A stretch of DNA of 63,972 nucleotides, the filler included, from an uncultured Methanosarcinales archaeon (GTDB lineage Archaea > Nanobdellota > Nanobdellia > Woesearchaeales > GW2011-AR9), in the NCBI GenBank assembly GCA_964434885.1. It is 7 parts of 5 records of this genome, joined end to end, with 100 filler letters (N's around TTAATTAATTAA, not from the genome) between each part and the next. Parts side by side here need not be neighbours in the genome. Positions count along the whole stretch, not along the records: positions 11,427 to 25,559 come from CAYSWQ010000001.1; 6 more parts are not named here. One strand, 5' to 3'. The position numbers and the translations under genes were made by a program. Every line of letters starts with the position of its first letter. The stretch's first letter is position 1. Of the stretch, positions 11,427 through 26,196 are shown piece by piece. The notes beneath the pieces are model-generated. The model was given only the letters and a program-made list of their open reading frames with translations, had not been told where the DNA came from and made no database searches.

Positions 11427-11577
11427 GTTGTTGGGTTGGAAGAAACTGTGAAGTGGAAAGATTATTTTGAAGTATGGAAAACCGAAAGCTATATAAATCA
11501 CTTGTTTTCCTTTGAAATGTTCAAGTGTGATTACAGTAAAAACAGTAATTACTTAAAACTAGCGAGGTGTTTTAAAC

Positions 11578-12216
11578 ATGACAAGTAATGAATCGTTATA
11601 TGCATGTATCAAGTATGATATGAAAAGAAAGGAGACCCGGCGTTGTTTGGACCAAATGCCGGAGACGAATGAATTAATTTCTAATTATTTGGATAATTTA
11701 GTTTTAGAAGCTAAAGAAAATCCCTATTGGTGCGAGGCAATAGTTAAAGCCAATGAATTGAATACAGGGATTAAATGTTCTGAAGAAGAATCATTTACTT
11801 ATTTTAACCAACAAGGACAAGAAATGTACATGGAAGATGCATTTGCTATTTCATTAATAGCAGAAGGTCTTAGTTTGGCAGACGAAATTGGTTTAGAAGA
11901 AAAATTAGAAAGAATTAGGCCAGTTAATGAAAAAGGATTGTTTTTGTTGTTGCCAAGGATGGAAGGGGTTTTAAGTAAAATGGGTTATGGGGGGGTAGAA
12001 AAGCCATTGTATAGTGATGCAGATGGTGTGATTAAAGTTGAAGGTCAAGATCCAACTGCAAGATATGAGAATTTAACTACTTCTGGTGATTTGAGTGAAG
12101 ATAATATGCAACGATTGAGAAAGAAAATGAGTGGTAGCTCGGATGGAAACACTGGTTTGTTTTATGTTGGTGGGTTGTTTGAAAAAGAATTAAGACCTCA
12201 ACCAGAACTAAGTTAA
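11578..12216 (+). CDS. Hypothetical protein (212 aa)
   Basis: Clean ORF with GAGGTG SD and an upstream TATA-like box (tatataaa near 11490); no recognisable family. Confidence 0.7.
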   Translation: MTSNESLYACIKYDMKRKETRRCLDQMPETNELISNYLDNLVLEAKENPYWCEAIVKANELNTGIKCSEEESFTYFNQQGQEMYMEDAFAISLIAEGLSLADEIGLEEKLERIRPVNEKGLFLLLPRMEGVLSKMGYGGVEKPLYSDADGVIKVEGQDPTARYENLTTSGDLSEDNMQRLRKKMSGSSDGNTGLFYVGGLFEKELRPQPELS

Positions 12217-12223
12217 TAATTTC

Positions 12224-12358
12224 TAATCCCTCTTGATTGCCTTCAAAATTCTGAACATATGTATGATTGTGCTACATCCCCGGATGGGGCGTCTCCCCGT
12301 AACGCACGCGAGGTTGTTGGTGTGGGAATTTTGACCGAATGGCAATGGTGAGGGATTA
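12224..12358. ncRNA. Candidate structured non-coding RNA, family unknown
   Basis: 65/135 GC (48%) in an AT-rich genome. Nested stems: taatccctc/gagggatta, attgcc/ggcaat, tcaaaattc/gaattttga, gtgc/gcac, tac/gta. Capped by two short hairpins. Confidence 0.6.
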
Positions 12359-12412
12359 TACCATACTAAGTTAATAGAAAAACTTAAAAACCAGCTACTT
12401 TTAGAATATTGT

Positions 12413-13033
12413 ATGGGAAATAAAATTGTTTGTCGGGCAGTAATTGAAGTTCTAGGTCAACCAAAAGAACATGTTGAAAAAGCAATGCAAGAATATATTG
12501 GTAATCTGAAAAAAGATGAAAGATATCAAATTATTCGAGAAGATTTTGCAGAATTAAAAAAACAAGATAATAATCTTTGGGCTACTTTTACAGAAATGGA
12601 GATAGAAGTAAAAGAGATTAAAGATGTAGTGAGTTTTTGTTTTGAATATATGCCCTCTTTGATTGAAATTATTGAACCTGAAAAAATAACTTTAACTGAC
12701 CGAGATTTCTCTGATTTTTTTAATGATTTACAAGCTCGTTTGCACCAAGTAGATATGGTAGCTAAGCAAGTTAAATTAGAAAGTGAACATTCAAATGTAA
12801 GTATGAATAAATTATTACGTAATTATGTGGTGATGTTGCTTAATGAAAGAGATTTATCAATGGAAGAATTAAGTAAATTTACTGGAATTAAAGAAGAAGT
12901 ATTAGGTGATTATTTAGATGGATTGGTAGATCAAAAAATATTGGAAATGGAAAAAGGAGTTTATCATTTAAATAAAGAGCAATTGCTTGCTGAAAAAGAG
13001 GGTGGATCAGATGGAGAACAATCAAGACAATAA
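12413..13033 (+). CDS. Conserved archaeal hypothetical protein with C-terminal wHTH
   Basis: IEVLGQPKEHV...FEYMPSLIEIIEP N-domain; LSMEELSKFTGIKEEVLGDYLDGLV HTH; overlaps scpB start. Confidence 0.7.
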   Translation: MGNKIVCRAVIEVLGQPKEHVEKAMQEYIGNLKKDERYQIIREDFAELKKQDNNLWATFTEMEIEVKEIKDVVSFCFEYMPSLIEIIEPEKITLTDRDFSDFFNDLQARLHQVDMVAKQVKLESEHSNVSMNKLLRNYVVMLLNERDLSMEELSKFTGIKEEVLGDYLDGLVDQKILEMEKGVYHLNKEQLLAEKEGGSDGEQSRQ

Positions 13034-13883
13034 ACATAAAGTTGAAGCAGTTTTGTTTGCAGTAGGGAAGGAAATTTCTACAGAAAGATTAGCTAGTTTA
13101 TGTGATTTAAAAGAAAAAGAAATTAAGCAAGTAATGGAAGAATTGAGGAAAGACTATGGTGAGAGGGAAAATTCTTTGCAAATTATGCAACGTGAAAATA
13201 ACTGGAAATTAACTGTCAGAGATGAATTTATTGGATTGGTTAACAATCTTGTTTCTGAAACTGATTTGGATAAACCATTAATGGAAACTTTAGCCGTAAT
13301 TGCTTGGAAGTATCCAGTAGTACAATCAGATGTCATAAAATTAAGACATTCTAAGGCGTATGATCATATTAAACAACTATTAGACATGGGTTTTATTCAA
13401 AAAATTCGTTCTGGTCGGACCTATAAGTTAAAGTTAACTAAGAAATTCTTTGAGTATTTTGATTTACCTTCTGCCGAAGCTAAAAAAGCTTTTTTGAAAG
13501 AAGTTCCTGCGGAAGTTTTGAAAGAAGCAGAAGAAACTGAAAAGGAAGCAGGAGAAGTAGAATTGTTGTTGGAAAAAGAAGAGAAAGAAGAGAATGCTCG
13601 TTCAGAGATTAAAGGGGCAATGGCCCAGGTGAAGAGTGCTGAAGAAAGTGATGATGGAGTGGAAGAAGAGAGTGTGGACTCTGAAGAAGGGGTTGATGAA
13701 GGACAGACCGTGTTAGTCACTAATCAAGTTCCAGAAGAAGGAGTGAGCGAAGTGGAAGAAGGAGAAGAAATGGAACTAGGAGAAGATGATGAAGACTCTG
13801 AAGAGATGGGTTCGGAAGAAATGACAAGTGGAAAGAAGAAAAAGAAGAAACAAAAAGAGATGATAAGTCAAGTTTTTGGCTGA
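13011..13883 (+). CDS. scpB: SMC-Scp complex subunit ScpB with long acidic tail
   Basis: VEAVLFA, METLAVIAWKYPVVQSDVIKLR, TKKFFEYFDL; ATG at 13011 follows GAGGGTGG. Confidence 0.92.
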   Translation: MENNQDNKHKVEAVLFAVGKEISTERLASLCDLKEKEIKQVMEELRKDYGERENSLQIMQRENNWKLTVRDEFIGLVNNLVSETDLDKPLMETLAVIAWKYPVVQSDVIKLRHSKAYDHIKQLLDMGFIQKIRSGRTYKLKLTKKFFEYFDLPSAEAKKAFLKEVPAEVLKEAEETEKEAGEVELLLEKEEKEENARSEIKGAMAQVKSAEESDDGVEEESVDSEEGVDEGQTVLVTNQVPEEGVSEVEEGEEMELGEDDEDSEEMGSEEMTSGKKKKKKQKEMISQVFG

Positions 13884-13892
13884 ATTTTCCGA

Positions 13893-13905
13893 AAGGTTTA
13901 TAAGG
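13893..13905 (+). promoter_or_regulatory. Archaeal BRE-TATA promoter of gyrA
   Basis: gaaaggTTTATAAg; the same purine-rich-then-TTTATA pattern precedes many genes in the window. Confidence 0.5.
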
Positions 13906-14000
13906 GTATTGGACTTCTTATTTTATATAATTTGTCGACGATAAATTTAAGTTTAATAATCTAAATGATTTAACTGAGATTAGTCAAAAAACTAGTAAAA

Positions 14001-16556
14001 ATGGATGAAGAAAATTATGAAAAAACAAGTGATTTAAGTAAAGATAATTCTATTAATTTTCTTTCTGAGGAAGAAGTTAGAGATGAAGCAATTGGGTACA
14101 ATAAATTGTGGAATAAAGGGAACGAAATGGTTAAAGATTATCAAAGTTCAGATAAAATTGTTTGTAAAGTTATTGAAGATGAAATGAAGCAGGCTTATGT
14201 TGATTATGCAATGTCGGTGATTGTTGGTCGAGCATTACCAGATGTTCGAGATGGATTAAAACCAGTACATAGAAGAATTCTTTTTGCAATGAATGAAATG
14301 GGGATGTTTCATAATAAACCCTATAAAAAATGTGCTCGAATTGTAGGGGAAGTGTTAGGTAAATATCACCCACATGGAGATACTGCTGTTTATGATGCTT
14401 TAGTTCGGATGGCACAGTCTTTTTCTCTGAGATTACCTTTGATTAACGGACAAGGTAACTTTGGAAGTATTGATGGTGATCGAGCGGCAGCGATGAGATA
14501 TACAGAAGCTAAGTTAAACAAATTGGCAGAAGATATGTTGAGAGACATCGATAAAGAAACTGTTAGTTGGAAACCTAATTTTGATGGTTCATTAAAAGAA
14601 CCAGAAGTCTTACCTGCAAAAATACCTAATCTTTTAGTTAATGGATCGAGCGGAATTGCAGTGGGAATGGCAACTAATATTCCACCCCACAACCTTAAAG
14701 AAGTTTGTCAAGGAACGATTGCAGTAATTGAAAACCCAGATATTTCTCCAGATGAATTAATGCAAATAATCCCTGGTCCTGATTTTCCAACTGGAGGAGA
14801 AGTTACGGCAAGAGATAACTTAAAATGGGCTTACCATAAAGGTCGGGGAAAAGTTATTATTAAATCAGTAGCAGAAATTGAAGAAAAAAGAATCATCATT
14901 AAAGAAGTACCTTATCAAGTCAATAAAGCAGAATTGATTGAACAAATTGCTGATTTAGTAAGAGATAAGAAAGTAGTTGGTATTAGAAATATTAATGATG
15001 AATCTGACCGGGAAGGAATTAGGGTTGTGGTGGATTTGAAGAAAGATGCTGATGGTCAAGTAGTGTTAAATCAGTTGTTTAAATATAGTAGATTAAAAGT
15101 TACTTTTGGAATTAATTTATTGGCTTTGGTAAATAATGAACCAAAAACATTGGGATTGAAGGATTTAATTGAATACCATATTAAACATCGACAAGAAATT
15201 ATCCGAAGAAGGACAGAATATGATTTAAAACAAGCAGAAAAAAGAGTTCATGTTTTAGAAGGATTGATTGTTGCTTTAGATAATATTGATGAAGTGATTC
15301 CAGGAATCCGTAATAGCAAGACAGTAGAAGAAGCAAAGAATTTCTTAATGAGCAATTATAGTTTATCAGAGATTCAAGCTAAAGCAATTTTGGAAATGAA
15401 GTTACAAAAATTAGCTTCATTGGAACAAGAAAAGATCAAAAAAGAACATCAAGAATTAATGATTAAAATTGAAGGATATCAAGAAATTCTAGGTTCTGAA
15501 AGTAAAATTTTAGAATTGATTAAATCAGAATTAACCGAAGTTATGGAAAAATATGGAGATGATCGTAGATCAAAAATTATCGAAGGGGAAGATGTTGGTT
15601 ATGTAGATATGGAAGAGTTGATTGAAAAAGATACTGTGGTAGTAACCATTACTAAATCTGGATATGCTAAAAGATTACCTTTAGATACTTATCGGACGCA
15701 ACGGCGAGGGGGGAAAGGGATTAAAGCTACAGGAATGAAAGAAGAAGACTTTGTAGAACATTTATTTATCACTTCTACCCACACATATTTATTGTTGTTT
15801 ACTGATTCTGGCCAAGTTCATTGGTTGAAAGCTTATATGATACCGGAAGGAAGCAGAATTGCTCGTGGAACACATATTGCTAATTTAATTGGTTCTAAAG
15901 ATCCAATTACTACTGTAGTGCCAGTAGATGACTTTACCAAAGGTTATTTATTTATGGCTACTCAAAAAGGAACAGTTAAAAAAACTAATTTGCAAGATTT
16001 TTCTCATCCTAGAAAAGGTGGAATTAGAGCGATTGGTTTAGATGAAGATAATAAACTAATTGGAGTTAAGTTAACAGATGGTAGTCAAGAGATCATATTA
16101 GCTAGTCGCCGAGGAATGGCAGTAAGGTTTAGAGAAAGTGATGTTCGACCAATGGGAAGGACTGCTTTTGGAGTAAGAGGAATTAGATTAGGTTCTGGAG
16201 ACAAAGTAGTGGGTATGATTGTAGCGGAAGAGGGAAAGAACATCTTAACTATTACAGAGAAAGGTTATGGTAAAAGAACTTCAATTGATGAGTATCGACT
16301 AATTGGTCGTGGTGGTAAAGGAGTAACTAATATTAAAGTGATGGAGAAAAATGGACCAGTAGCTTATGTAATGTTAGTAAATGATAGTGAAGAATTAATG
16401 TTGATTTCAAAATCAGGAATTGCAATTAGGATTAATTGTGGTGGGATTTCTAAGATTGGTAGGGCGACGCAAGGAGTTCGGGTGATGAGATTGGGAGAAG
16501 GAGACCAAGTAGTTACTGCTGCAAAGATTGTTGAGGAAGAAGATGGGTCAGAGTAG
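14001..16556 (+). CDS. gyrA: DNA gyrase subunit A
   Basis: RALPDVRDGLKPVHRR, YHPHGD, catalytic AAMRYTE, GyrA-box QRRGGKG, beta-pinwheel C-terminal repeats. Confidence 0.97.
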   Translation: MDEENYEKTSDLSKDNSINFLSEEEVRDEAIGYNKLWNKGNEMVKDYQSSDKIVCKVIEDEMKQAYVDYAMSVIVGRALPDVRDGLKPVHRRILFAMNEMGMFHNKPYKKCARIVGEVLGKYHPHGDTAVYDALVRMAQSFSLRLPLINGQGNFGSIDGDRAAAMRYTEAKLNKLAEDMLRDIDKETVSWKPNFDGSLKEPEVLPAKIPNLLVNGSSGIAVGMATNIPPHNLKEVCQGTIAVIENPDISPDELMQIIPGPDFPTGGEVTARDNLKWAYHKGRGKVIIKSVAEIEEKRIIIKEVPYQVNKAELIEQIADLVRDKKVVGIRNINDESDREGIRVVVDLKKDADGQVVLNQLFKYSRLKVTFGINLLALVNNEPKTLGLKDLIEYHIKHRQEIIRRRTEYDLKQAEKRVHVLEGLIVALDNIDEVIPGIRNSKTVEEAKNFLMSNYSLSEIQAKAILEMKLQKLASLEQEKIKKEHQELMIKIEGYQEILGSESKILELIKSELTEVMEKYGDDRRSKIIEGEDVGYVDMEELIEKDTVVVTITKSGYAKRLPLDTYRTQRRGGKGIKATGMKEEDFVEHLFITSTHTYLLLFTDSGQVHWLKAYMIPEGSRIARGTHIANLIGSKDPITTVVPVDDFTKGYLFMATQKGTVKKTNLQDFSHPRKGGIRAIGLDEDNKLIGVKLTDGSQEIILASRRGMAVRFRESDVRPMGRTAFGVRGIRLGSGDKVVGMIVAEEGKNILTITEKGYGKRTSIDEYRLIGRGGKGVTNIKVMEKNGPVAYVMLVNDSEELMLISKSGIAIRINCGGISKIGRATQGVRVMRLGEGDQVVTAAKIVEEEDGSE

Positions 16557-16989
16557 TTTGGATGAGACTTTGTTTCCGTTGGAAACCAATAAAAAATATT
16601 CTGCCAAGGAATTGTATAAAGTTTTACTTGAAGAAAGAAAAGACTATAGTTTATCTCTAGCAGCCAATTGGGGAACTTTGAAAAAAGATCGAAGTACTAG
16701 AAAATTGAAATATGGTCAAATTAATCACCGGTTTTTGAAAACACTGGAAGCAGGTTTAGAGAATTCAGAATTACATTCACTAGAGTTGGAATTTGTTAGG
16801 AAAGGAATCGAATTGGACGCCGAGTATGTAGAATTTGTTGATTTTTGGTATGAATTAAGAGTTGATAATGGTCGCCAAAAAACTTATCAAGTAACTTCCT
16901 ATGCAGTCAGCAATAGATTTAATGATTTTATTGAAGTTGATTTGTTACGACCAAAAAAACAAGGGCCAAGGAAAACCAGCAAAAAATGA
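16543..16989 (+). CDS. Hypothetical protein
   Basis: ORF overlaps gyrA stop and the next start (ATGA), suggesting translational coupling. Confidence 0.6.
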   Translation: MGQSSLDETLFPLETNKKYSAKELYKVLLEERKDYSLSLAANWGTLKKDRSTRKLKYGQINHRFLKTLEAGLENSELHSLELEFVRKGIELDAEYVEFVDFWYELRVDNGRQKTYQVTSYAVSNRFNDFIEVDLLRPKKQGPRKTSKK

Positions 16990-18026
16990 AAATAATAATT
17001 TTAACTAATTTTGAAGAATTGAGTTTGTTAGAGATTAAAGAATTAGTTAATGTTAAAGGAAAGAAAGTTGGTTCTGGTGTTATTAAAGTTGATGTTTCGG
17101 AAGAAGAAATGTTGGTTTTGTGTTCTCGTGGACAATCTTTCAAAAGAGTTTTGTTAAATGTAGATAGTGTTGATGATTTAGAAGATATTAATTTAAGTGG
17201 TTTTGAATGGTCTGATGTTTTATGGCCAGAATGTAGTTTTAAGGTAGAGATTGAAGGAGTTAAAGGGAATGAAAAAAGAATTGAAATTGGGCGTAAAATT
17301 GCCGATTTGGTTCTGGCTGTCGTTGATTTTAAATTGAATATAGATTTTAAGAAACCAGAAGTGGGAGTTTATTTATATTTTGATGGAAAAAAATATTTTT
17401 TGGGAATAGATTTGATTGGTTATGAAATGAATAAAAGAGATTATCGAGTGTTTGTTAATTCTGCTTCATTTAAAGGAGATATTGGTTATTATTTAGTTCG
17501 TAAATCTGATTTTGTTAAAGGAGAAAAATTAGTAGTAGGTTTTGTTAAAGATGGAACTACTTTGATTGAAGCAGGTTTATTTGATGTTGGGAAAGTAGTA
17601 AATAAAAAATTTAGTTTTGAAAAGTTTCCTAAATTTAAAGAATTGAAGAAGAAAGAAATAGAGAAGAAAGAAACTAAAGTACAAGGTTTTGATGAAAGTA
17701 TGGTTAATGTTCGGGCAGCGCGGAAGAATGCCCAACTTGCGGGTGTTTATGTTACAGCGAATAAATTTGACTTGGATGAATTAGATGTTAAATTTTCAGA
17801 AGGGGAAGTTGATAGGTTGATTTTTCAAATTACTAAAAAAGATGAAGATAAATTAAACGAAATTTATTATCAGGCAAATTATGTTTTACGAAAAAAAGGA
17901 ACTTTGTTGATTTTAAGTCGGGAAGGATGGGAAATTTCTGTTTCTGATAAATTTAAATTGGTTGGTTCGGAAGTTATTAAAAAAGGACAGAGCAGTTATA
18001 AGATTTGGTTGTTGGAGAAGAAATAG
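16986..18026 (+). CDS. THUMP-domain tRNA methyltransferase-like protein (Trm14/TrmN-like) with degenerate SAM motifs
   Basis: THUMP (SFKVEIEG..IDFKKPE..LGIDLIG..KRDYRVF) followed by a Rossmann-like domain with GTTLIEA and ARKNAQLAGV. Confidence 0.75.
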   Translation: MKIIILTNFEELSLLEIKELVNVKGKKVGSGVIKVDVSEEEMLVLCSRGQSFKRVLLNVDSVDDLEDINLSGFEWSDVLWPECSFKVEIEGVKGNEKRIEIGRKIADLVLAVVDFKLNIDFKKPEVGVYLYFDGKKYFLGIDLIGYEMNKRDYRVFVNSASFKGDIGYYLVRKSDFVKGEKLVVGFVKDGTTLIEAGLFDVGKVVNKKFSFEKFPKFKELKKKEIEKKETKVQGFDESMVNVRAARKNAQLAGVYVTANKFDLDELDVKFSEGEVDRLIFQITKKDEDKLNEIYYQANYVLRKKGTLLILSREGWEISVSDKFKLVGSEVIKKGQSSYKIWLLEKK

Positions 18027-18076
18027 TTTTGATTAAAACCAAACGATTTAAAAATAATAAAATATTACTTCTAGAT

Positions 18077-18817
18077 ATGGTTAATATATTAGAGTTAATG
18101 TCTCGTATCCAAAAACATCTTAGGTTTAATCATCAAGAACTGGTTGGTTTAGTTTTAGGGATTTTAGTAACAGGATTTATTTTTTCTTTTAAAGATTGGG
18201 GAGTAGATAAATTTAATTTGTTAGTGGGCTTGAAGAATTTGGTTATTACGGTTTTGGCTGCGTTAGTTGGTTATCTTGCCCATTTAATTCCTCAAAAGAT
18301 TTATGCATTGGGAGAAGGTTATTTAGCAGAATTTAAACCCTGGTGGCCAGGAATAATTATTGCTTTAGTTTTGGGTTTTGTTTCTGCTGGAAATATAACT
18401 TTGATTCTGGCAGGAGGAATGTTTTTGTCATTTATGGTCAGACACAGGCTAGGGGAGTTTAGATATGGTTATAATTTAGAACAACAGGCAGTAACTGGTT
18501 TTTGGGGAGTTTATGGTTTGTTGATAATGGCTACAATTTTCCGTATTTTCACTTACTATTTTCCCAAAGTTTTATTTTTTGAAAAAGGATTATTGATTTG
18601 TTTAATTTTTGCAATATGTGCATTATTGCCAATTCCAGGAATGAATGGATTAAACTTATTTTTTGGTTCCAGAATGATTTATTTTTTTAGTTTGATTTTA
18701 GTAGTGGTATTTTCATTATTGTTTTGGTTAGGTGGGGGAATTGGTTTAGTAGTGGCAATTGTTGGTCAAATCATGGTTGGAGGATATTATTTATTGGCGG
18801 TGGGTTCGGAAAAATGA
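18077..18817 (+). CDS. M50/site-2-protease-like membrane protein with degenerate HExxH
   Basis: Multi-TM; AHLIPQKIYA at the HExxH position; LLPIPGMNG at the NLLPxxPLDG position. Confidence 0.65.
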   Translation: MVNILELMSRIQKHLRFNHQELVGLVLGILVTGFIFSFKDWGVDKFNLLVGLKNLVITVLAALVGYLAHLIPQKIYALGEGYLAEFKPWWPGIIIALVLGFVSAGNITLILAGGMFLSFMVRHRLGEFRYGYNLEQQAVTGFWGVYGLLIMATIFRIFTYYFPKVLFFEKGLLICLIFAICALLPIPGMNGLNLFFGSRMIYFFSLILVVVFSLLFWLGGGIGLVVAIVGQIMVGGYYLLAVGSEK

Positions 18818-19152
18818 AAATTGAAGAATATTGGGTGGAAACTTTAACTATGGTTTTTATACTAGTTGGTTTTGTGATTTCATTGTTATTGGTAAGTCAT
18901 TCAATAGCATATTTTATTGTGCTTTTGTCTGGTTTCTTGGCTGGAAGAATTTTCTACATGAAAAGATTCAAAGAACCAATTTTTCCTTTTGTTGTAATGA
19001 TTGTTGGTTTCTTATTTGGTTATCTTTTAGGTGGTTTTGGAATGAGTAAAGTTTGGATTGTTGTTTTGTTTTTAGTGAGCTGGGGAATTTCATATTACTT
19101 GCATAAAGCAAAAATAATCAAAATCTTTAAAAGTAAGAACTTTATTAAGTAA
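18814..19152 (+). CDS. Small 4-TM membrane protein
   Basis: Four hydrophobic segments; ATGA overlap with the upstream gene. Confidence 0.7.
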   Translation: MKIEEYWVETLTMVFILVGFVISLLLVSHSIAYFIVLLSGFLAGRIFYMKRFKEPIFPFVVMIVGFLFGYLLGGFGMSKVWIVVLFLVSWGISYYLHKAKIIKIFKSKNFIK

Positions 19153-19156
19153 AGAC

Positions 19157-19444
19157 ATGGATAGTTTTCGAAATAAGAGTATTATCATCAGCAGGAAGCC
19201 AGGAAAAGATTCTGAAGATTATGATGTACAGATTGCATTATTTGGAGAGAATAATCCTCATTTAAAAGGACATGTTCCATTTAAAGTTTTAGAGTATAAT
19301 AATATTGAAAAAGTGAGAATAAGAGAGTTAGAAAATGTTTCTTATTATACTGCCGGAAATGATATTGTGATTAATGACTTAGTAGAATTGAATATTGGGT
19401 TGGAAGATGGAATCATTACTTTGACTGGTAAACAAGAATTTTAG
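19157..19444 (+). CDS. Hypothetical protein (beta-rich)
   Basis: ORF starts 4 nt after the previous stop; host-like codon use. Confidence 0.65.
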   Translation: MDSFRNKSIIISRKPGKDSEDYDVQIALFGENNPHLKGHVPFKVLEYNNIEKVRIRELENVSYYTAGNDIVINDLVELNIGLEDGIITLTGKQEF

Positions 19445-19619
19445 TATCATTTGATAGTGGTGTTTTTATTCTAGAAACATTTATAAGTGAGGTTCTTATC
19501 TATAATAAAGAATAAAAAGAGCTAAAAACATTAATATAAAGTTGGCGGAAACAGATAGTCAAAAACTAATTCTGTTTCAAAATTATATATTACTGAAGTA
19601 TTAGCAACGAGGAAATAAA

Positions 19620-20873
19620 ATGAAATTTGAAGAATTAAATGTAAAACCAGAGATTGTATCTCGGTTACAAAAAGAAGGAATTGTAGAAGCAACTACAATC
19701 CAAGAAAAAACAATTCCTTTAGTACAAAAAGGACATGATGTTATTGGAATCTCTAGAACTGGTTCTGGAAAAACAGTTAGTTTTGGTGTACCTTTGTTAG
19801 AACAAATGGAATTGGGTAGAGGGATTCAGAGTGTTGTATTGGCCCCGACAAGAGAATTAGCTAACCAAATCTCTAGTGAGATGAAAAAATGGTGTGATTT
19901 TAAGATTGCAACAATTTTTGGTGGTGTGGGAATGGAACCACAAATTGAAGCCCTCTGTACAGCTGAAATTGTAGTGGGAACTCCTGGAAGAATGCTAGAT
20001 CATTTACAAAGAGGAAATTTGGATTTAACTAAAGTAAAAGTTTTTGCTTTAGATGAAGCAGATAAAATGGTAGAAATGGGGTTTATTGAAGATATTGAAG
20101 AAATTTTAATGGGGATGCCTAAAAGTAGACAAATTTTACTTTTTGGAGCAACTATTTCTAATGAAATTGATTATCTGAAAAAGAAACATATGAACAATGT
20201 TGTTGTGGCGGAAGCAGAATTACATGTGAAAAAAGATTTATTACAACAATTCTATTATAATGTTAAAGTTCATGAGAAATTTTCTTTGTTAGTGCATCTT
20301 TTGAAGCAAGAAGAAATGGGAAGAGTGATGATTTTTTGTTCTAAAAGAAGTACTGTGGATTTGGTTAATCATAATTTGAAATTACAAGGAGTAAAGGCAG
20401 AAATGATTCATGGGAAAATGACTCAAAATAAAAGGTTGAGTGTGATTAAAAGGTTCAATACTGATAAAGTGAATATTTTGGTAGCATCAGCTGTTGCCGC
20501 TCGTGGATTAGATATTAAAGACGTAACCCATATCTTTAATTATGATTTGTCTCAAGATCCGCAAGAATATATCCATAGAATTGGTCGGACTGCTCGAGCA
20601 GGTGAAGCTGGAAAAGCAATTACTTTACTTGCTGAACCAGACTATCAGAATTTTGATGGGATTTTTGCTCGTTATGATGTGGATATTGAAGAATTGGAAC
20701 CTGGACATTATCAGAAGTTGAAGTTTGAAACTGGTTTTCAGAGAAGTGGATTTCGAGGAAGAAATGGTTCTCGAGGTGGGTTTCGAGGAAGAAATTTCCA
20801 TGGAAGAAGAAATTTTAGAAATGGTAGTGTGAATCGAAATAATGATTCTGGTGTAAGCCAGAATTTTAATTAA
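19620..20873 (+). CDS. DEAD-box RNA helicase with FRGRN-repeat basic tail
   Basis: TGSGKT, PTRELA, TPGR, DEAD, ARGLD and HRIGRTAR motifs. Confidence 0.95.
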   Translation: MKFEELNVKPEIVSRLQKEGIVEATTIQEKTIPLVQKGHDVIGISRTGSGKTVSFGVPLLEQMELGRGIQSVVLAPTRELANQISSEMKKWCDFKIATIFGGVGMEPQIEALCTAEIVVGTPGRMLDHLQRGNLDLTKVKVFALDEADKMVEMGFIEDIEEILMGMPKSRQILLFGATISNEIDYLKKKHMNNVVVAEAELHVKKDLLQQFYYNVKVHEKFSLLVHLLKQEEMGRVMIFCSKRSTVDLVNHNLKLQGVKAEMIHGKMTQNKRLSVIKRFNTDKVNILVASAVAARGLDIKDVTHIFNYDLSQDPQEYIHRIGRTARAGEAGKAITLLAEPDYQNFDGIFARYDVDIEELEPGHYQKLKFETGFQRSGFRGRNGSRGGFRGRNFHGRRNFRNGSVNRNNDSGVSQNFN

Positions 20874-21016
20874 TTTTTTTTATATTTTGGATTGGGTTTA
20901 ACTGTAAATATATGGCGTTAACTGGCTGTTTCTGAGCATCTCAAAAACTGAGATATATAGCCAATATAAGTGAAATGTTAAGGACGTTTTTATGTTAGTT
21001 CTGACATGTACTTATT

Positions 21017-21460
21017 ATGGCACGTGAGAGGTGCAAAACAATGAACGTCTTCCAAAAAATTAAAATTGTACGAGAGATTATAAAAGAGGTTTTTCCTAAG
21101 ATGGAAATAGAACAACTAACACAAGAAGTACAATTTCTAGCTAATAACTGGCATGGGAAAAAAAGAAAGACAGGTATTAAATTAACCAGACAGCAGATGG
21201 TGTTATATGATCTTCTCTTAAAGAACCAATATTATCCTGATACAGTTTATCGTTGGCTACTGTTAGCAACCGCCCCAGAGGATGTTAAAGAAAAGTTACG
21301 TAATCAAGAAATCAGTATCAAAACAGCTTTAAATCTGAGAAGACAGCAGAAAGAATATCCTTCTGTTACAGAACGAGAATTTATGGACACCATCATTAAT
21401 TGTATTGAAACTTTTATTTCTGAAGCTGGAGAGAATTATCCCGGGAGGACGATAAAATGA
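21017..21460 (+). CDS. Helical DNA-binding protein with ParB/KorB-HTH-like segment; partner of the recombinase
   Basis: TVYRWLLLATAPEDVKEKLRNQEISIKTALNL resembles the ParB HTH-region motif (LRLLxLPxxVxxxLxxGxIS); ATGA overlap with the recombinase. Confidence 0.6.
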   Translation: MARERCKTMNVFQKIKIVREIIKEVFPKMEIEQLTQEVQFLANNWHGKKRKTGIKLTRQQMVLYDLLLKNQYYPDTVYRWLLLATAPEDVKEKLRNQEISIKTALNLRRQQKEYPSVTEREFMDTIINCIETFISEAGENYPGRTIK

Positions 21461-22251
21461 ACCAATATCATCTAAGTGCAAAACAAAGGCTTCCAAAAGT
21501 GCTTAATAAAAAACAATTACTTTCTACCTTAAGACATGTTAAATCTCCAACCGTTCTAATGGGGATGTTCCTAAGTATTTTTTTAGGTCTTAGAGTCGGA
21601 GAGATTTCTTATGATGATCGAAGGAAAATCATTCCACTTAAATGGGAAAATATTGACTTAGAAATTGGAGAAGTACTTATCCTTGATGCCAAAAATCCAA
21701 AACGGTATAAAAGTGGGTATGGAAAGGACAGAATAGTTCCTATCTTTGACGAGTTTATTCACATTTTTAAGATGTGGAAAAAAATCAACCCAGATTCAGA
21801 ATATGTTTTACCACATCAGAGCAGAAAAGGACAGCCCCTTAATGTGGCCACCTTACAAAGACATTTACAGGAAGCTTTAGAAAAAGCCAATTTAATGCAA
21901 GTTGAATATTACCAAACAGACGGAAAACCCCGTTACATGTACCATTATCATACTTTAAGACATGTTTCAGCAATAAATCTATTAAGAAAAGGAATGACTG
22001 TTGAACAAGTTAAAGAATTTCTTGGTCATGAAAATATTGAGTCAACTATGGTCTATCTTAAATTAGTAAAAGAGGATCTTAAAGAAGCAGTCACTCACGC
22101 TTTTGCTTACCCCAAGAAAAGAAAATATTTCTTAGATTTAGAAAAACCTAATTTTAATTTAGAGACAGGGTTGGAAGCTTTACGTCTAGAAAATGAAAAT
22201 TTGAAGATGAAAATGCAGCTACAACAACCAGTAATGGTGGTGCAACAATGA
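21457..22251 (+). CDS. Tyrosine recombinase/integrase (catalytic domain only, C-terminal coiled coil)
   Basis: GLRVGE (R), AKN (K), HTLRH, LGH, TMVYL (Y): catalytic residues intact. Confidence 0.93.
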   Translation: MNQYHLSAKQRLPKVLNKKQLLSTLRHVKSPTVLMGMFLSIFLGLRVGEISYDDRRKIIPLKWENIDLEIGEVLILDAKNPKRYKSGYGKDRIVPIFDEFIHIFKMWKKINPDSEYVLPHQSRKGQPLNVATLQRHLQEALEKANLMQVEYYQTDGKPRYMYHYHTLRHVSAINLLRKGMTVEQVKEFLGHENIESTMVYLKLVKEDLKEAVTHAFAYPKKRKYFLDLEKPNFNLETGLEALRLENENLKMKMQLQQPVMVVQQ

Positions 22252-22628
22252 TTTCTGGTAAGAATTATGAACGTGAATTTGTTCGGTTAATGACAAAATG
22301 TGGATTAGATTGTCATCGTATTGCTGGTTCAGGTGTTGGGTCTGAAGCTGTTTGTGATTGTATTCTCTTCTATAAGAATAAAACTTATCTCGTTGAAGTT
22401 AAAGCTACTAAAGAAAAGAAATTATATGTCCGCAGTAGAGTAAGAAAACAGTTAGAAGAGATGTTTAAAGTATGTGAAAGGAACAAAGTTATTCCTCTAT
22501 TTGCGATTAAGTTTAAACATCGTGGATGGAATCTCAAAGTAATTCGAGACTATTCTCATGTAGAATTTGATAAGGAGGTGATTTTAAATGAAAAGAACTA
22601 TTGCCGAAAGAATTTACCGATTAATTGA
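22248..22628 (+). CDS. hjc: Archaeal Holliday junction resolvase, Hjc family
   Basis: GKNYERE...RIAGSG...D...LVEVK PD-(D/E)XK motif. Confidence 0.88.
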   Translation: MISGKNYEREFVRLMTKCGLDCHRIAGSGVGSEAVCDCILFYKNKTYLVEVKATKEKKLYVRSRVRKQLEEMFKVCERNKVIPLFAIKFKHRGWNLKVIRDYSHVEFDKEVILNEKNYCRKNLPIN

Positions 22629-23043
22629 AGATGAAGGTCCAAAAACAATCAAGGCGCTGAGAAGGAGATTACCAGATATTAACCCGAAGTCAATTAATAT
22701 GGCTGTTTCTCATAAGAAACATTTATTCCTTGGTTTAAGTAAGGGTAGAGTTGGATTAGTTGAAGTTCATAATTACATCTTAAGGAGGGAGAAAAAAAAG
22801 GAGAACATAAACTTAGCCATATATCAACGTATTGTGAACTTATTGGTTTGTGGACCAATGCGCATTGAAAGAATAACTGAAGAAATGCCAGATATTAACT
22901 CCAATAGCATTGAAGTTGAGATAAGTAATCATCCAGAACTGTTCTTACGAATTAAACCTGGACTGATTGGTAGAAGAGGAAGAGACGAATATTTAAAAGA
23001 GAAATATGCTAGAAAGTCATTCTCCAATTCCTCTTCTTCTTAA
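22588..23043 (+). CDS. Tandem winged-helix protein (two internal repeats)
   Basis: IAERIYRLI..GP.TI..L...PDINPKSI..LF and IYQRIVNLL..GPMRI..I..PDINSNSI..LF. Confidence 0.7.
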   Translation: MKRTIAERIYRLIEDEGPKTIKALRRRLPDINPKSINMAVSHKKHLFLGLSKGRVGLVEVHNYILRREKKKENINLAIYQRIVNLLVCGPMRIERITEEMPDINSNSIEVEISNHPELFLRIKPGLIGRRGRDEYLKEKYARKSFSNSSSS

Positions 23044-23178
23044 TTCTTTAAGTACTGCCATTCGGATGAAAGAAGAATGAGTGATATTGTTACCGCAAGC
23101 TTGACCTATTTTCTTCCATTGTTCTGGAGAAAAACAAACACTTCTTGACTGCATCCGATTCCTAACTCTCTGTAACAT
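23017..23178 (-). CDS. Small ribbon-helix-helix (CopG-like) protein, 53 aa, absent from the ORF track
   Basis: Manual translation MLQRVRNRMQSRSVCFSPEQWKKIGQACGNNITHSSFIRMAVLKELRRRGIGE*; GGTGA SD; overlaps the upstream RHH gene stop. Confidence 0.7.
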   Translation of the reverse strand: MLQRVRNRMQSRSVCFSPEQWKKIGQACGNNITHSSFIRMAVLKELRRRGIGE

Positions 23179-23362
23179 CTTCACCACACAAATTTTTATG
23201 AATTTGATCTATTTTTTCGATGAAAGATAATTCCATGAAAATCATAAAACGGACATAATCACTTTTATTTGAAAATCCTAACCTCTCAATCTTTTCATTC
23301 AAACTTTTTTCTTGTTCTGAAGTTAGAAGCAAAATGAATTGTTTTGTATATTTTTTCTTCAT
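23162..23362 (-). CDS. Ribbon-helix-helix DNA-binding protein
   Basis: FILLLT-SEQEKSLNEKIERLG-FSNKSDYVRFMI strand-helix-helix pattern. Confidence 0.75.
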   Translation of the reverse strand: MKKKYTKQFILLLTSEQEKSLNEKIERLGFSNKSDYVRFMIFMELSFIEKIDQIHKNLCGEDVTES

Positions 23363-23384
23363 GTAATTATTAGTAGATTAAATA

Positions 23385-23657
23385 TTATATATTTGTAACC
23401 CTGGGGAATTTTCTTGTCCTTTTAACAAAATCAGTGATTTTCCTTTGATTTAGATCTGATCTCTTAGTAAATGCAGGATTACCATCAAGAAAAACTCTAG
23501 CTATTAAACGATGACTGTCATTTATAATAACATCACAATGTAAGACTGTCCCTTTGTTTAGCCCATGTGGTTTACAGAGAAGTTTACTTAAAGAAATGAA
23601 AGGAGTGCCTTTGTTAATTTGTATTTTGCTTTGCCAGTCTATTATTTGTTTAGACAT
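23385..23657 (-). CDS. AbrB/MazE-like swapped-hairpin DNA-binding protein
   Basis: SKIQINKGTPFISLSKLLCKPHGLNKGTVL; alternative GTG start at 23684. Confidence 0.55.
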   Translation of the reverse strand: MSKQIIDWQSKIQINKGTPFISLSKLLCKPHGLNKGTVLHCDVIINDSHRLIARVFLDGNPAFTKRSDLNQRKITDFVKRTRKFPRVTNI

Positions 23658-23772
23658 ATGGTAACCTCTTTCTGTGATCACCACCTCTTTTATTTCATAA
23701 GCCTTTTATACTATTAAAGCGTTTTGGTTTATTATTTTTACAATATAAAGATTTGATAGATGTTCTTTTACA

Positions 23773-24756
23773 ATGTTAAACGATAAGACTAACCTCAAGA
23801 TTCTGTCCGAGCTGGACAAGAATTCAAGAATATCTTACACAGATCTAGGAAGAAATATAAAATTAACTAAACAGGCTATTAAACATCGTTTGGATAAATT
23901 AATCCAAGCAAGAGTGATTTCACATTTTCTTACAATTGTCAATATCGGTAAAATTGGATATACATCTCATAAAATATTCTTTTCATTTCACAATCTCTCA
24001 AATGAAAAACGAAAGGAGATTATCAAGTATCTTAGGAACAACAAGTTCGTTGGTGCTTTTGCTTTATGTGATGGACCTTATGATTTGTATTTAGGTATTA
24101 TAACTAAAACTTGTCATGATCTTAATAGGGAACTTTCAAAGTTTTACAATCTTTTCTCAGAACAAATAAAATCAAAGAAAGTTGCCACTATAGTTAAGGC
24201 TGAATTTTATAACCGTGATTATTTAACAAATAAAGAAAGAAAAATCGGTGAGAAGAAAAAATGGTTCTGTTCAAAAGTTGAAAAAGCTAAAGATCTTAAA
24301 CCAGTGGATAAAAAAATCTTAACATACTTAGTTAGGTCTCCAAGAACTTCCTTTGCTACAATTGCACGAAGATTGGAAACTTCAACACAAAATGTGAGTA
24401 ACAGAATTAAATTTCTAGAAGAGAACCAAATTATTGAAGGACATACAATAGCACTTAATGAGAAAAAATTTGATTTTATTCATCATAAAATATTATTGGA
24501 GTTCAGTTCAACTCCAGAAGCGGTTGAAATACAATTGAGAGGATTTTTTGAATCGCAACCCAACATTACTTATTTTGTAAAAACGTTTGGAGAATGGGAT
24601 TATGAATTTAATATAGAAACAAAAAGCTTTGATGAATATAGAAAGATAATTGAAGATTTTAAGAAATTATTTTCTCCTTATCTTAAGAATTTCACTCCTT
24701 TATTAATTAATCATGTTCCCAAATTCAAATATATTCCAAATTTTAAGAATCAATAG
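23773..24756 (+). CDS. Tandem (duplicated) Lrp/AsnC transcriptional regulator
   Basis: Two HTH+RAM units: LDKNSRISYTDLG...GPYDL and LVRSPRTSFATIA...GEWDYE. Confidence 0.9.
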   Translation: MLNDKTNLKILSELDKNSRISYTDLGRNIKLTKQAIKHRLDKLIQARVISHFLTIVNIGKIGYTSHKIFFSFHNLSNEKRKEIIKYLRNNKFVGAFALCDGPYDLYLGIITKTCHDLNRELSKFYNLFSEQIKSKKVATIVKAEFYNRDYLTNKERKIGEKKKWFCSKVEKAKDLKPVDKKILTYLVRSPRTSFATIARRLETSTQNVSNRIKFLEENQIIEGHTIALNEKKFDFIHHKILLEFSSTPEAVEIQLRGFFESQPNITYFVKTFGEWDYEFNIETKSFDEYRKIIEDFKKLFSPYLKNFTPLLINHVPKFKYIPNFKNQ

Positions 24757-25006
24757 TAAGTCCAACTAACAATTTCTCTTTGTTTAATAGATCGTTGATC
24801 AAATCTTTAAGGACGGTAGGAATCTTAGGATCTTCTAAATTTACTGACATATTAGCTTCAAATGAAGGTACAGATTGTTCTACGATGTAAACTACTTCTA
24901 GTTTGTACTCATCTTTCAACTGAGAATCAACTGTTTCCTGTAACTTGTTTACTATTTCTTTCCCTTGGGGTGTTTCTCCTTTAAGATATAATTTTATTGT
25001 CTGCAT
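24743..25006 (-). CDS. kaiB: KaiB-like protein (87 aa, divergent)
   Basis: IKLYLKGETPQG...LQETVDSQLKDEYKLEVVYI...LINDLLNKEKLLVGL aligns by eye with cyanobacterial KaiB LKLYVAGNTPNS...LKNILE..F.GVYALKVIDV...IIGDLSDREKVLIGL. Start M31 of the track ORF lies about 25 nt from a TATA-like box. Confidence 0.78.
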   Translation of the reverse strand: MQTIKLYLKGETPQGKEIVNKLQETVDSQLKDEYKLEVVYIVEQSVPSFEANMSVNLEDPKIPTVLKDLINDLLNKEKLLVGLTIDS

Positions 25007-25107
25007 TTTTAAGTATTTAAATAGTGAATTTATATAAGTGTTACGGTAATAATTTAGTTTTGAAAATAGTTGAAAGGTTTTTAAATTAAGGTGCATTTTC
25101 TTTAATA

Positions 25108-25302
25108 ATGGGACAAAATGATATTTATCAATTCTTAAAGAAGAATAAAAATAAGTGGTTTAGTTCTAGAGATATCTGTGAATCATTAAAAGTGGGTTCA
25201 AGTTCCGTATCTACTTGTTTGAAAAGGTTAAGAACCCATAAATTTGTTTTCTTCAAACAAGATCCAAAAAGGAAGAATATCTTTTTGTATAAAGTCAGAT
25301 GA
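25108..25302 (+). CDS. Small winged-helix protein
   Basis: IYQFLKK..WFSSRDICESLKVGSSSVSTCLKRL. Confidence 0.8.
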   Translation: MGQNDIYQFLKKNKNKWFSSRDICESLKVGSSSVSTCLKRLRTHKFVFFKQDPKRKNIFLYKVR

Positions 25303-25559
25303 TTGATACAACTTTGATTAATAAACTTGAAGAGTTATGTAAACAGGAAAGAAAAATTAAAGGATTTAAAAATTTGTTAAGAGTTAGAGGTAAGATTAAA
25401 AATAAATCTTTAACTAAAAAAGGAAACATTAAATTGAAAGTTAAGAGGGGCGAGGATATTTTTAGATTAGTAGTTTTACAAAGTCATAAAGAAAGGTTTA
25501 AGTTAGCTGAAAAGTTAGTTGAGGGCAACAATGTTTCTGTTATTGGAATTAAGAAATTA
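25299..25559 (+). CDS. OB-fold protein (3'-truncated)
   Basis: VRGKIKNKSLTKKGNIKLKV...LVEGNNVSVIG. Confidence 0.6.
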
Positions 25560-25659
25560 NNNNNNNNNNNNNNNNNNNNNNNNNNNNNNNNNNNNNNNNN
25601 NNNTTAATTAATTAANNNNNNNNNNNNNNNNNNNNNNNNNNNNNNNNNNNNNNNNNNNN
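25560..25659. other. Artificial contig spacer
   Basis: N44-TTAATTAATTAA-N44. Confidence 0.99.
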
Positions 25660-26196
25660 CTTCTTCAAGTCATCTAAACTTGGGCCCCAGTAACCTTTTA
25701 AACAGTTTACTTCCAAATCCGCCAAATATTCTTCAAAGTTCTCAGCTTCAGCAGGATTTATTTTTGACATCAAACAATGATAGGCTTTAGGCCAGTTTTT
25801 CATCCTAGATTCAATTACGTGATGTATTCTTTCGGGACAATTAACCGCATAATCCACCATATCCAAGAAAGATTCATTACTCCACAATTTATTTGTTATT
25901 CCTTCTAAATGAGGTCCATGATGATCTCCATCTGTACACAAAACAATAGGTACTCCCATCTCATTTGCCTTAGCCACCATTCTATAAGCTTGATTTTCTG
26001 GCTTATCTCCTTCTCTTCCTGGAAAGAAAACATCCGAAATAATTCCATCAACAGACATACATTCATAAGCCTGCTTCAATGTCCCAACATAAGTCACATC
26101 CAAATCCACTACTTTTTGTCTTTCTCCTAACATATGTTGAACATCTTGCATATGATGTTCATTATCTTCAATCACTAGTATTCTTAGTTTTTCCAT
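25660..26196 (-). CDS. Response-regulator receiver (CheY-like) domain protein, 3'-truncated
   Basis: RILVIED...DGIISDVFFP...VPIVLCT. Confidence 0.75.

Follow-up and report, generated by a model that had tools for sequence, protein, structure and literature searches.

What does a kaiB-like gene do in an archaeon whose assembled genome encodes no KaiC? The question is raised by a stretch of 63,972 b of DNA (the window) from the genome of an uncultured woesearchaeote (GCA_964434885.1, Woesearchaeales, a DPANN lineage), in which a gene near the end of the largest contig encodes an 87-amino-acid (aa) protein resembling KaiB. KaiB is a textbook metamorphic protein, and how one sequence can give two folds, and which of them came first, are current questions. 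An earlier note on this DNA had described the gene as an orphan, divergent kaiB on a DPANN mobile island, and had suggested that the protein may be locked in one fold or have altered kinetics and that it could be an element-borne timer or a modulator of KaiC-like ATPases of the cell or its host. The protein is a KaiB homologue, no KaiC or KaiA is encoded in the assembly, two of the three prolines of the fold switch are lost, and the predicted fold is that of the KaiB ground state. We give roughly an even chance to the explanation that this is an acquired, fast-evolving KaiB locked in its ground-state fold which works, if it is functional, without KaiC. A protein with one shape, either repurposed or decaying, is more likely than a timer.

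KaiB homology and the partner genes

Curated family models recognize the protein below their cut-offs. The Pfam model KaiB (PF07689) gives 19.6 bits (cut-off 27, E 7.7e-4) and covers the N-terminal half only; the NCBIfam model NF006798 matches over the full length (residues 4-84, E 7.4e-7) with 29.2 bits (cut-off 110), and TIGR02654 reaches 27.0 bits (cut-off 145.3). In a phmmer search of the PDB sequences, the nine top matches are all KaiBs (residues 3-84, E 9e-6 to 3e-4), and hhalign against 13 KaiB homologues aligns 84 columns with a probability of 98.7% (E 2.6e-16). HMMER over 1.84 billion representative proteins returned 18 matches at E<=1e-3, one being a 117-aa form of the same protein. 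Of the other 17, all but one, a spurious Ig-repeat protein, exceed the Pfam KaiB cut-off. The 16 homologues share 26-36% identity with the 87-aa protein, and most of the nearest ones come from short contigs of metagenomes; identity to structurally solved KaiBs is 22-27%.

The alignment with the KaiB consensus bears out the motifs read in the earlier note. KLY..G.TP and Y.LEV in the N-terminal part and KEKLLVGL at the C-terminus are present, the consensus ATPTL is replaced by MSVNL and IGDL by INDL, and the invariant family columns (L6, G10, Y34, P63, G82) are all retained. The changes cluster in the fold-switching half, as that note had stated. It had also considered that a profile search might yield only generic thioredoxin similarity, but no thioredoxin family of Pfam matches even at E<=10, and a CxxC motif is impossible in a protein (9.9 kDa, pI 4.6) with no cysteine. 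PADLOC and PHROGs contain no family for it, and the best scores of a protein-atlas feature search (0.82-0.83; DinI-like and viral hypothetical proteins) lie below a meaningful level. Judged by its sequence, the open reading frame (ORF) is a real, very divergent and intact homologue of KaiB.

The same frame also opens at an ATG at 25096, and the resulting 117-aa form is the one present in the public protein collection (P0002). We prefer the 87-aa form because the KaiB homology starts only at residue 31 of the longer one, the TATA-like box TTATATAA fits the inner ATG (-31..-24), and the outer ATG lies only 11 b from the divergently transcribed start at 25108. This neighbouring gene, encoding a winged helix-turn-helix (wHTH) protein, has a TATA-like box of its own (TTTTTAAATTAA, -30..-19 of its ATG). 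We presume a promoter function of both boxes from the usual spacing of archaeal TATA elements, and by this spacing the kaiB-like mRNA is probably leaderless or has a short leader. The 101-b intergenic region between the divergent genes is the one that the earlier note had taken for a shared promoter region. At its 3' end, the gene overlaps the convergent Lrp/AsnC gene by 14 b (24743-24756), again as described there; both of its flanks are thus occupied by genes on the opposite strand.

The absence of kaiC and kaiA, first claimed for "contig B", is true of the complete contig and of all the rest of the assembly, although "contig B" is only the final 14,133 b (11427-25559 of the window) of contig G000:C1, which is 89,459 b long. 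A six-frame search of the assembly with the Pfam KaiC model gave only four matches, namely RadA, RadB, Cdc6/Orc1 (with a score under the cut-off) and a protein of 175 aa that has no Walker A motif. The model of full-length KaiC (TIGR02655) matched RadB alone (16 bits) in the assembly; KaiA and PAS_9 had no match in it, and its three receiver domains (PF00072) are all encoded away from the kaiB-like gene. Under the explanation favoured below, with neither KaiC nor KaiA in the genome, the protein is not part of a clock or an hourglass.

The 175-aa protein (G000:C6:40933-41457; PF06745, 37 bits, above the cut-off; it also matches DUF7504) is encoded outside the window in a Che-like cluster on another contig (G000:C6:37492-41457). 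The minus strand of this cluster carries genes for CheR, a 113-aa ORF and CheY, and its plus strand genes for CheY, a CheX-like protein, CheC and then the 175-aa protein, with abutting starts and stops. The 175-aa protein has homologues in 15 of 40 genomes of the same family.

As a control, 80 public metagenome loci with ordinary KaiBs, 40-51% identical to the homologue P0011, were inspected; they represent one subfamily and not a census. Of 38 loci with at least 1500 b upstream, 37 have kaiC immediately upstream of kaiB in the same orientation, and the 38th has it elsewhere in the locus; of 45 loci with at least 1500 b downstream, none has it immediately downstream. Pfam confirmed a double-domain KaiC in 19 of 29 scanned loci (59 of the 120 picked ORFs were scanned), and in each of the ten scanned loci that yielded no KaiC the upstream sequence was shorter than 1,300 b. 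The gene order in this subfamily is kaiC, kaiB and a gene for a PAS/histidine kinase-receiver hybrid, some loci having a sigma-54 activator or a CheB-CheR-PAS fusion instead of the hybrid. Note that kaiC precedes kaiB here, unlike in cyanobacteria, where it is downstream. The upstream kaiC fits the pairing reported in two papers, according to which KaiB occurs only together with full-length KaiC (PMC5520375) and archaeal kaiB-like genes adjoin genes for KaiC-like ATPases of arCOG01174 (PMC4858521).

Predicted fold and the switch prolines

AlphaFold2 was run with a 17-row alignment (pLDDT 85.5) and with the single sequence (pLDDT 83.4). Both models have the same order of elements, i.e., strand 2-8, helix 13-29, strand 34-40, a middle region 41-63, helix 64-76 and strand 80-86. 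Foldseek found 17 matches in the PDB for each model at E<=1e-3, and those listed are all chains of 1VGL, 1R5P, 2QKE, 1WWJ and 4KSO, which we take to be the classical crystal structures of KaiB in the ground state. The alignment model reaches a TMq of 0.77-0.82 to these structures, the single-sequence model one of 0.68-0.78. For foldswitch-stabilized KaiB (5JWO, 5JYT, 5JWQ, 5JWR), 8UBH and 4KUN, TMq is 0.38-0.49, mostly from the shared N-terminal half, and for redox thioredoxin-fold structures it does not exceed 0.46 with either model. Neither of the two runs produced the fold-switched (FS), thioredoxin-like form. The predicted fold is KaiB-specific, and a generic thioredoxin is therefore refuted. 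A homodimer prediction (two copies, with alignment) scored 0.02 against a mark of 0.42 and is used neither for nor against any reading.

The switch itself has been linked to three prolines. A study of KaiB from Rhodobacter sphaeroides (10.1101/2024.06.03.597139) reports that P58, P65 and P67 of the C-terminal half change from trans in the ground state to cis in the FS state, that this isomerisation is rate-limiting for the switch, that P58A or P65A alone abolishes the FS state, and that the three residues are conserved in 474 of 487 KaiBs. The corresponding columns of the 87-aa protein read N56, P63 and V65, i.e., one proline of three is kept; all three are present in 13 of the 16 homologues and two in the other three. 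With two switch prolines lost, the FS state would be unreachable, in line with the two models and with the lack of a KaiC. Of the suggestions in the earlier note, locking in one fold is thus the one that the models and the prolines favour. The positions at which mutations favour the FS state in Thermosynechococcus elongatus (Y8, G89, D91, Y94) presumably correspond to Q2, G82, T84 and no residue, the protein having ended there, and point in no clear direction.

The protein can be compared with several known systems. With the KaiBs of clocks and hourglasses (kaiBC and kaiABC; Synechococcus, T. elongatus, R. sphaeroides) it shares homology over the full length, a size of about 90 aa and the predicted ground-state fold. 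In contrast to them, its ATPTL and IGDLS segments are rewritten, it keeps one of three switch prolines, it scores below the curated cut-offs, and it is found in an archaeon, beside an integrase and without kaiC in the assembly. Natural KaiBs that seem to adopt one state instead of toggling are Lpp1115 of Legionella pneumophila (4KUN) and KaiB-TV-4 (8UBH), both of which are in the fold-switched state according to PMC10808063. By prediction, the 87-aa protein takes the other state, the ground state, with a TMq of 0.39-0.49 to these two. No natural ground-state-only KaiB was described in the literature found with searches that were not aimed at exactly this question. Archaeal KaiB-like proteins, which are small as well, are reported in PMC4858521 and PMC5520375 as paired with arCOG01174 KaiC-like ATPases, whereas the gene studied here has no such partner. 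Finally, the KidA-KaiB system (PMC9478674) also uses KaiB away from a neighbouring kaiC; however, KidA binds fold-switched KaiB, and here PAS_9 is missing and the neighbours encode DNA-binding proteins.

Genomic neighbourhood and origin

The window consists of chained contig ends (C1, C2, C3, C4, C46) separated by runs of N and TTAATTAATTAA spacers. ORFs on the two sides of a spacer are therefore not genomic neighbours, and a 194-aa ORF at 25612-26196, which is on contig C2 and is not among the three receiver-domain matches of the genome, was dropped as a neighbour of the kaiB-like gene. The assembly (1.07 Mb, 66 contigs, 31.7% GC, 92% complete, 0% contamination) has archaeal gene content (RadA, RadB, Cdc6/Orc1, Hjc, XerA-type recombinases). 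The same DNA occurs in marine and seawater metagenome runs, no RNA run being listed among them, and contigs from four runs of two studies carry it without a single difference. Independent identical pieces cross the Lrp/KaiB join (24684-24869) and the KaiB/wHTH/OB join (24901-25469). Since assemblies of independent runs, including the second study, share both joins, a chimeric contig end, which the earlier note had feared, is unlikely. Contig G000:C1 stops 553 b upstream of the kaiB-like gene; at k-mer lengths of 21-127 b its end overlaps none of the other contig ends, and 21-mers are not shared either. A contig of run X1 (4,147 b) covers 24450-25559 and extends 3,037 b further.

Table 1. Features around the kaiB-like gene (positions in the window; the strand is left empty where none applies or both occur)
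Feature	Position	Strand	Basis and remarks
Candidate left border of the variable stretch	20862..20899		After the DEAD-box helicase stop (20873); weak hint only
ORF, 147 aa	21017..21460	+	4-b overlap with integrase; no family match; tblastn paralogue on C7
Tyrosine recombinase (integrase), 264 aa	21457..22251	+	Pfam Phage_integrase, 79 bits; PHROG integrase families
Hjc-type Holliday junction resolvase, 126 aa	22248..22628	+	Pfam Hjc, 59.7 bits; phrog_6591
Four small ORFs: 151 aa (+), 56 aa (-), 66 aa (-), 99 aa (-)	22588..23684		Little or no family match
Tandem Lrp/AsnC regulator, 327 aa, two HTH_AsnC modules	23773..24756	+	Pfam and NCBIfam; convergent with the kaiB-like gene
Divergent KaiB-family gene (P0001), 87 aa	24743..25006	-	ATG start, TAA stop; ORF and translation
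Divergent intergenic region, 101 b	25007..25107		Two TATA-like boxes; read from the sequence
Winged-helix protein, 64 aa	25108..25302	+	First gene of divergent operon; weak MarR_2, HTH_27 and DnaD_N, below cut-off
OB-fold protein	25299..25559	+	Start overlaps the wHTH stop (ATGA); weak tRNA_anti-codon, 17.6 bits, below cut-off

Up to 20873, on the left, the genes are housekeeping ones, which encode ScpB, GyrA, a THUMP methyltransferase and a DEAD-box helicase. At the candidate border the metagenome runs disagree, three of four having alternative left junctions. In contigs of runs X3 and X4, 28 GC-rich foreign letters precede the match, which begins at 20899; a contig of run X6 departs from the reference before 20862, and one of run X1, the possible source, bridges the site. 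The 28 letters do not occur in the assembly when up to 3 mismatches are allowed. The differences at 20862-20899 could reflect another insertion site, a circular form or strain differences.

The integrase is surplus to the chromosomal XerA. Among the five tyrosine recombinases of the genome it is the weakest match to the XerA model (about 76-77 bits, cut-off 220, N-terminal part of the model uncovered), the best being on contig C33 (204 bits). Likewise, the resolvase is the second, weaker Hjc copy of the genome (the better one, on C3, has 91 bits), and both proteins match phage families of PHROG. The 147-aa protein and the integrase form a pair with paralogues, in this order, at C7:402-713 and C7:807-1373 (36% and 35% identity, tblastn). 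That module (G000:C7:384-3885, outside the window) opens contig C7 and is followed by a further recombinase gene; another tyrosine recombinase, on C25, is interrupted by four in-frame TAA codons. None of the four small ORFs has a paralogue elsewhere in the genome; phrog_30549 matches the 151-aa one at its N-terminus, and the 66-aa one has a weak NikA-like match. On the other side of the kaiB-like gene, the winged-helix protein weakly matches PHROG families in the wHTH region of replication initiators, and the OB-fold gene is truncated after 87 codons by the contig end.

The tandem Lrp/AsnC family is present in 32 of 40 genomes of the same family; a single genome can have as many as 12 copies, and the present one has six matches. 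These proteins of about 325 aa, each chain with two modules of HTH plus ligand domain, are an expanded family of the lineage. As the family is typical of the lineage, the stretch looks like mobile or variable DNA of the lineage itself rather than a foreign fragment. Of the mobile island proposed earlier, the surplus integrase and the second Hjc copy stand, whereas attachment (att) sites and a right end were not found and the composition is native. That the integrase-bearing stretch is an integrated element is thus plausible but unproven.

The kaiB-like gene is a singleton in all collections searched. The protein had no match in 60 relatives (36 genomes of the same family, 24 of the same order), and a KaiB alignment profile had none in 400 other genomes of the same phylum, all at least 90% complete. 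IMG/VR and the JGI metagenomes contain no relative of it, a word-index protein search retrieved only its own 117-aa form, and the best full-length homologue, P0006, had no match in genome contigs. No KaiB from DPANN was found in the literature; a search for the two together returned one work, on type IV filaments, in which KaiB is named once, for Thermoproteales loci. The KaiB phylogeny proposed in the earlier note shows how divergent the protein is but not where it came from. In a FastTree of 17 domains its terminal branch is the longest (1.44, the next being 0.77), and as this branch attaches without support (0.00-0.06), a donor cannot be named.

Competing explanations and significance

The explanation that we favour runs as follows. 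This woesearchaeote lineage probably acquired kaiB sideways, and the gene would be cargo in, or beside, the integrase-bearing variable stretch. The N-terminal half and the C-terminal helix and strand would have been kept, and the segment that normally remodels rewritten. The loss of two of the three trans-to-cis prolines would most likely leave the protein permanently in the ground-state fold (strand-helix-strand, a loose middle, helix and C-terminal strand). The thioredoxin-like form that binds KaiC, SasA, CikA, KaiA or KidA would then probably be out of reach, and the protein would probably serve as a small acidic adaptor in a module rich in regulators (tandem Lrp, wHTH, OB-fold and small ribbon-helix-helix-like ORFs).

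Several points weigh against this explanation. The fold was called with AlphaFold2 only, from two runs and not from an ensemble of states, and the behaviour of this program on KaiB is reportedly disputed, some papers being said to argue for memorisation. In both models the rewritten middle (41-63) has low confidence (pLDDT 58-73) and strand 3 of the ground state is unformed, so that the protein may differ from both known KaiB states. The gene shows no mark of recent foreign origin: its GC content (31.4%) and that of its third codon positions (GC3, 26%) match the genome (31.7 +/- 3.1% and 21.5 +/- 4.3%; long ORFs), and any transfer was therefore old or from a source of similar composition. As for the element, no att sites and, in 11427-25559, no tRNA gene were found, the right end lies beyond the contig, and six genomes of the same family share only the DEAD-box helicase with the region (62-70% identity). 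This last comparison is uninformative, because even the housekeeping neighbours are not syntenic. No close relatives exist from which purifying selection on the gene could be measured, and the adaptor role is conjectural. Lastly, a kaiC past the contig end or in the unassembled 8% of the genome is conceivable.

The main rival, possible if on balance doubtful, is that the gene is a decaying relic, i.e., an element-borne kaiB that lost its kaiC partner and drifts without function, its frame being open by chance and owing to its shortness. The longest branch of the tree, the scores below every curated cut-off, the loss of the best-conserved motifs (ATPTL, IGDLS and two switch prolines), the missing partner gene and the singleton status all suit such a relic. 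However, the reading frame is undamaged, its TATA-like box and ATG are well placed, four runs of two studies agree on every letter of the sequence, and the invariant columns have survived. The single-sequence model is confident, which random drift would tend to erode, and the fully ameliorated composition argues for long residence without loss in a streamlined genome of 1.07 Mb. The more specific idea that it is a decaying fragment of a kaiBC locus finds no KaiC-like remnant nearby. If it is a drifting relic after all, it would be only a curiosity of gene transfer.

Improbable, in our view, is that the protein still reaches a binding-competent form and acts on an ATPase of the RecA superfamily, be it the KaiC-like protein encoded last in the cheY-cheX-cheC operon of contig C6, RadA or RadB, an unassembled kaiC product or a KaiC-like ATPase of a host cell. 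The genome does encode a KaiC-family protein tightly coupled to CheC, and one of the 16 nearest homologues (P0007, 289 aa, from a metagenome) has a KaiB domain fused to a CheC-like region, a possible sign that KaiB-like domains and Che phosphatases are connected. The archaeal pairs with arCOG01174 ATPases and the incomplete assembly, with the contig end so close, speak for a partner as well. Against it, the KaiC-like protein occurs in 15 of 40 genomes of the same family, none of those searched having a KaiB match, and so needs no KaiB; it is also encoded on a different contig, and P0007 matches CheC only marginally (21.6 bits, cut-off 22). Two of the three switch prolines are gone and both models are in the ground state, and an ordinary kaiC would abut kaiB on the same strand, whereas here both flanks are on the opposite strand. 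According to PMC9478674 and PMC10808063, all known partners of KaiB bind the fold-switched form. The timer or ATPase modulator of the earlier note is thus unsupported, as no KaiC is present and the form bound by partners is apparently unreachable.

A generic thioredoxin-fold protein, a chance ORF or a mis-assembled foreign piece would suit the sub-threshold Pfam and NCBIfam scores, the unrelated, low-scoring protein-atlas clusters and the position near a contig end of a metagenome-assembled genome, but this is very improbable and largely refuted by the hhalign result, the lack of both thioredoxin matches and cysteine, the KaiB-specific predicted fold, the joins recovered without differences in the second study, the overlap with an Lrp gene of a lineage-typical family and the native composition.

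Under the favoured reading of a KaiB locked in its ground state, one further step can be considered, to which we assign a rather slim chance: a natural ground-state-only KaiB, in which selection has preserved, with neither switch nor KaiC, a fold otherwise known only as an inactive storage form. On a DPANN integrative element it would have taken on a separate task, such as that of a small adaptor controlling the regulators or the replication and recombination proteins of the element. If this were true, the supposedly unique ground fold of KaiB would have an independent function, and the protein would be a natural end-point of the fold-switch landscape, opposite to the variants that exist only in the fold-switched state. 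What is new here is the lost switch, the ground-state prediction and the DPANN setting. With this locus, a KaiB-family gene becomes known from a DPANN lineage where 400 sampled genomes had yielded none, and the pattern published in PMC5520375, of KaiB occurring only together with full-length KaiC, is broken. The protein lacks two of the three prolines that 97% of KaiBs share and comes from a genome without KaiC, which makes it a cheap and direct test case for the fold switch.

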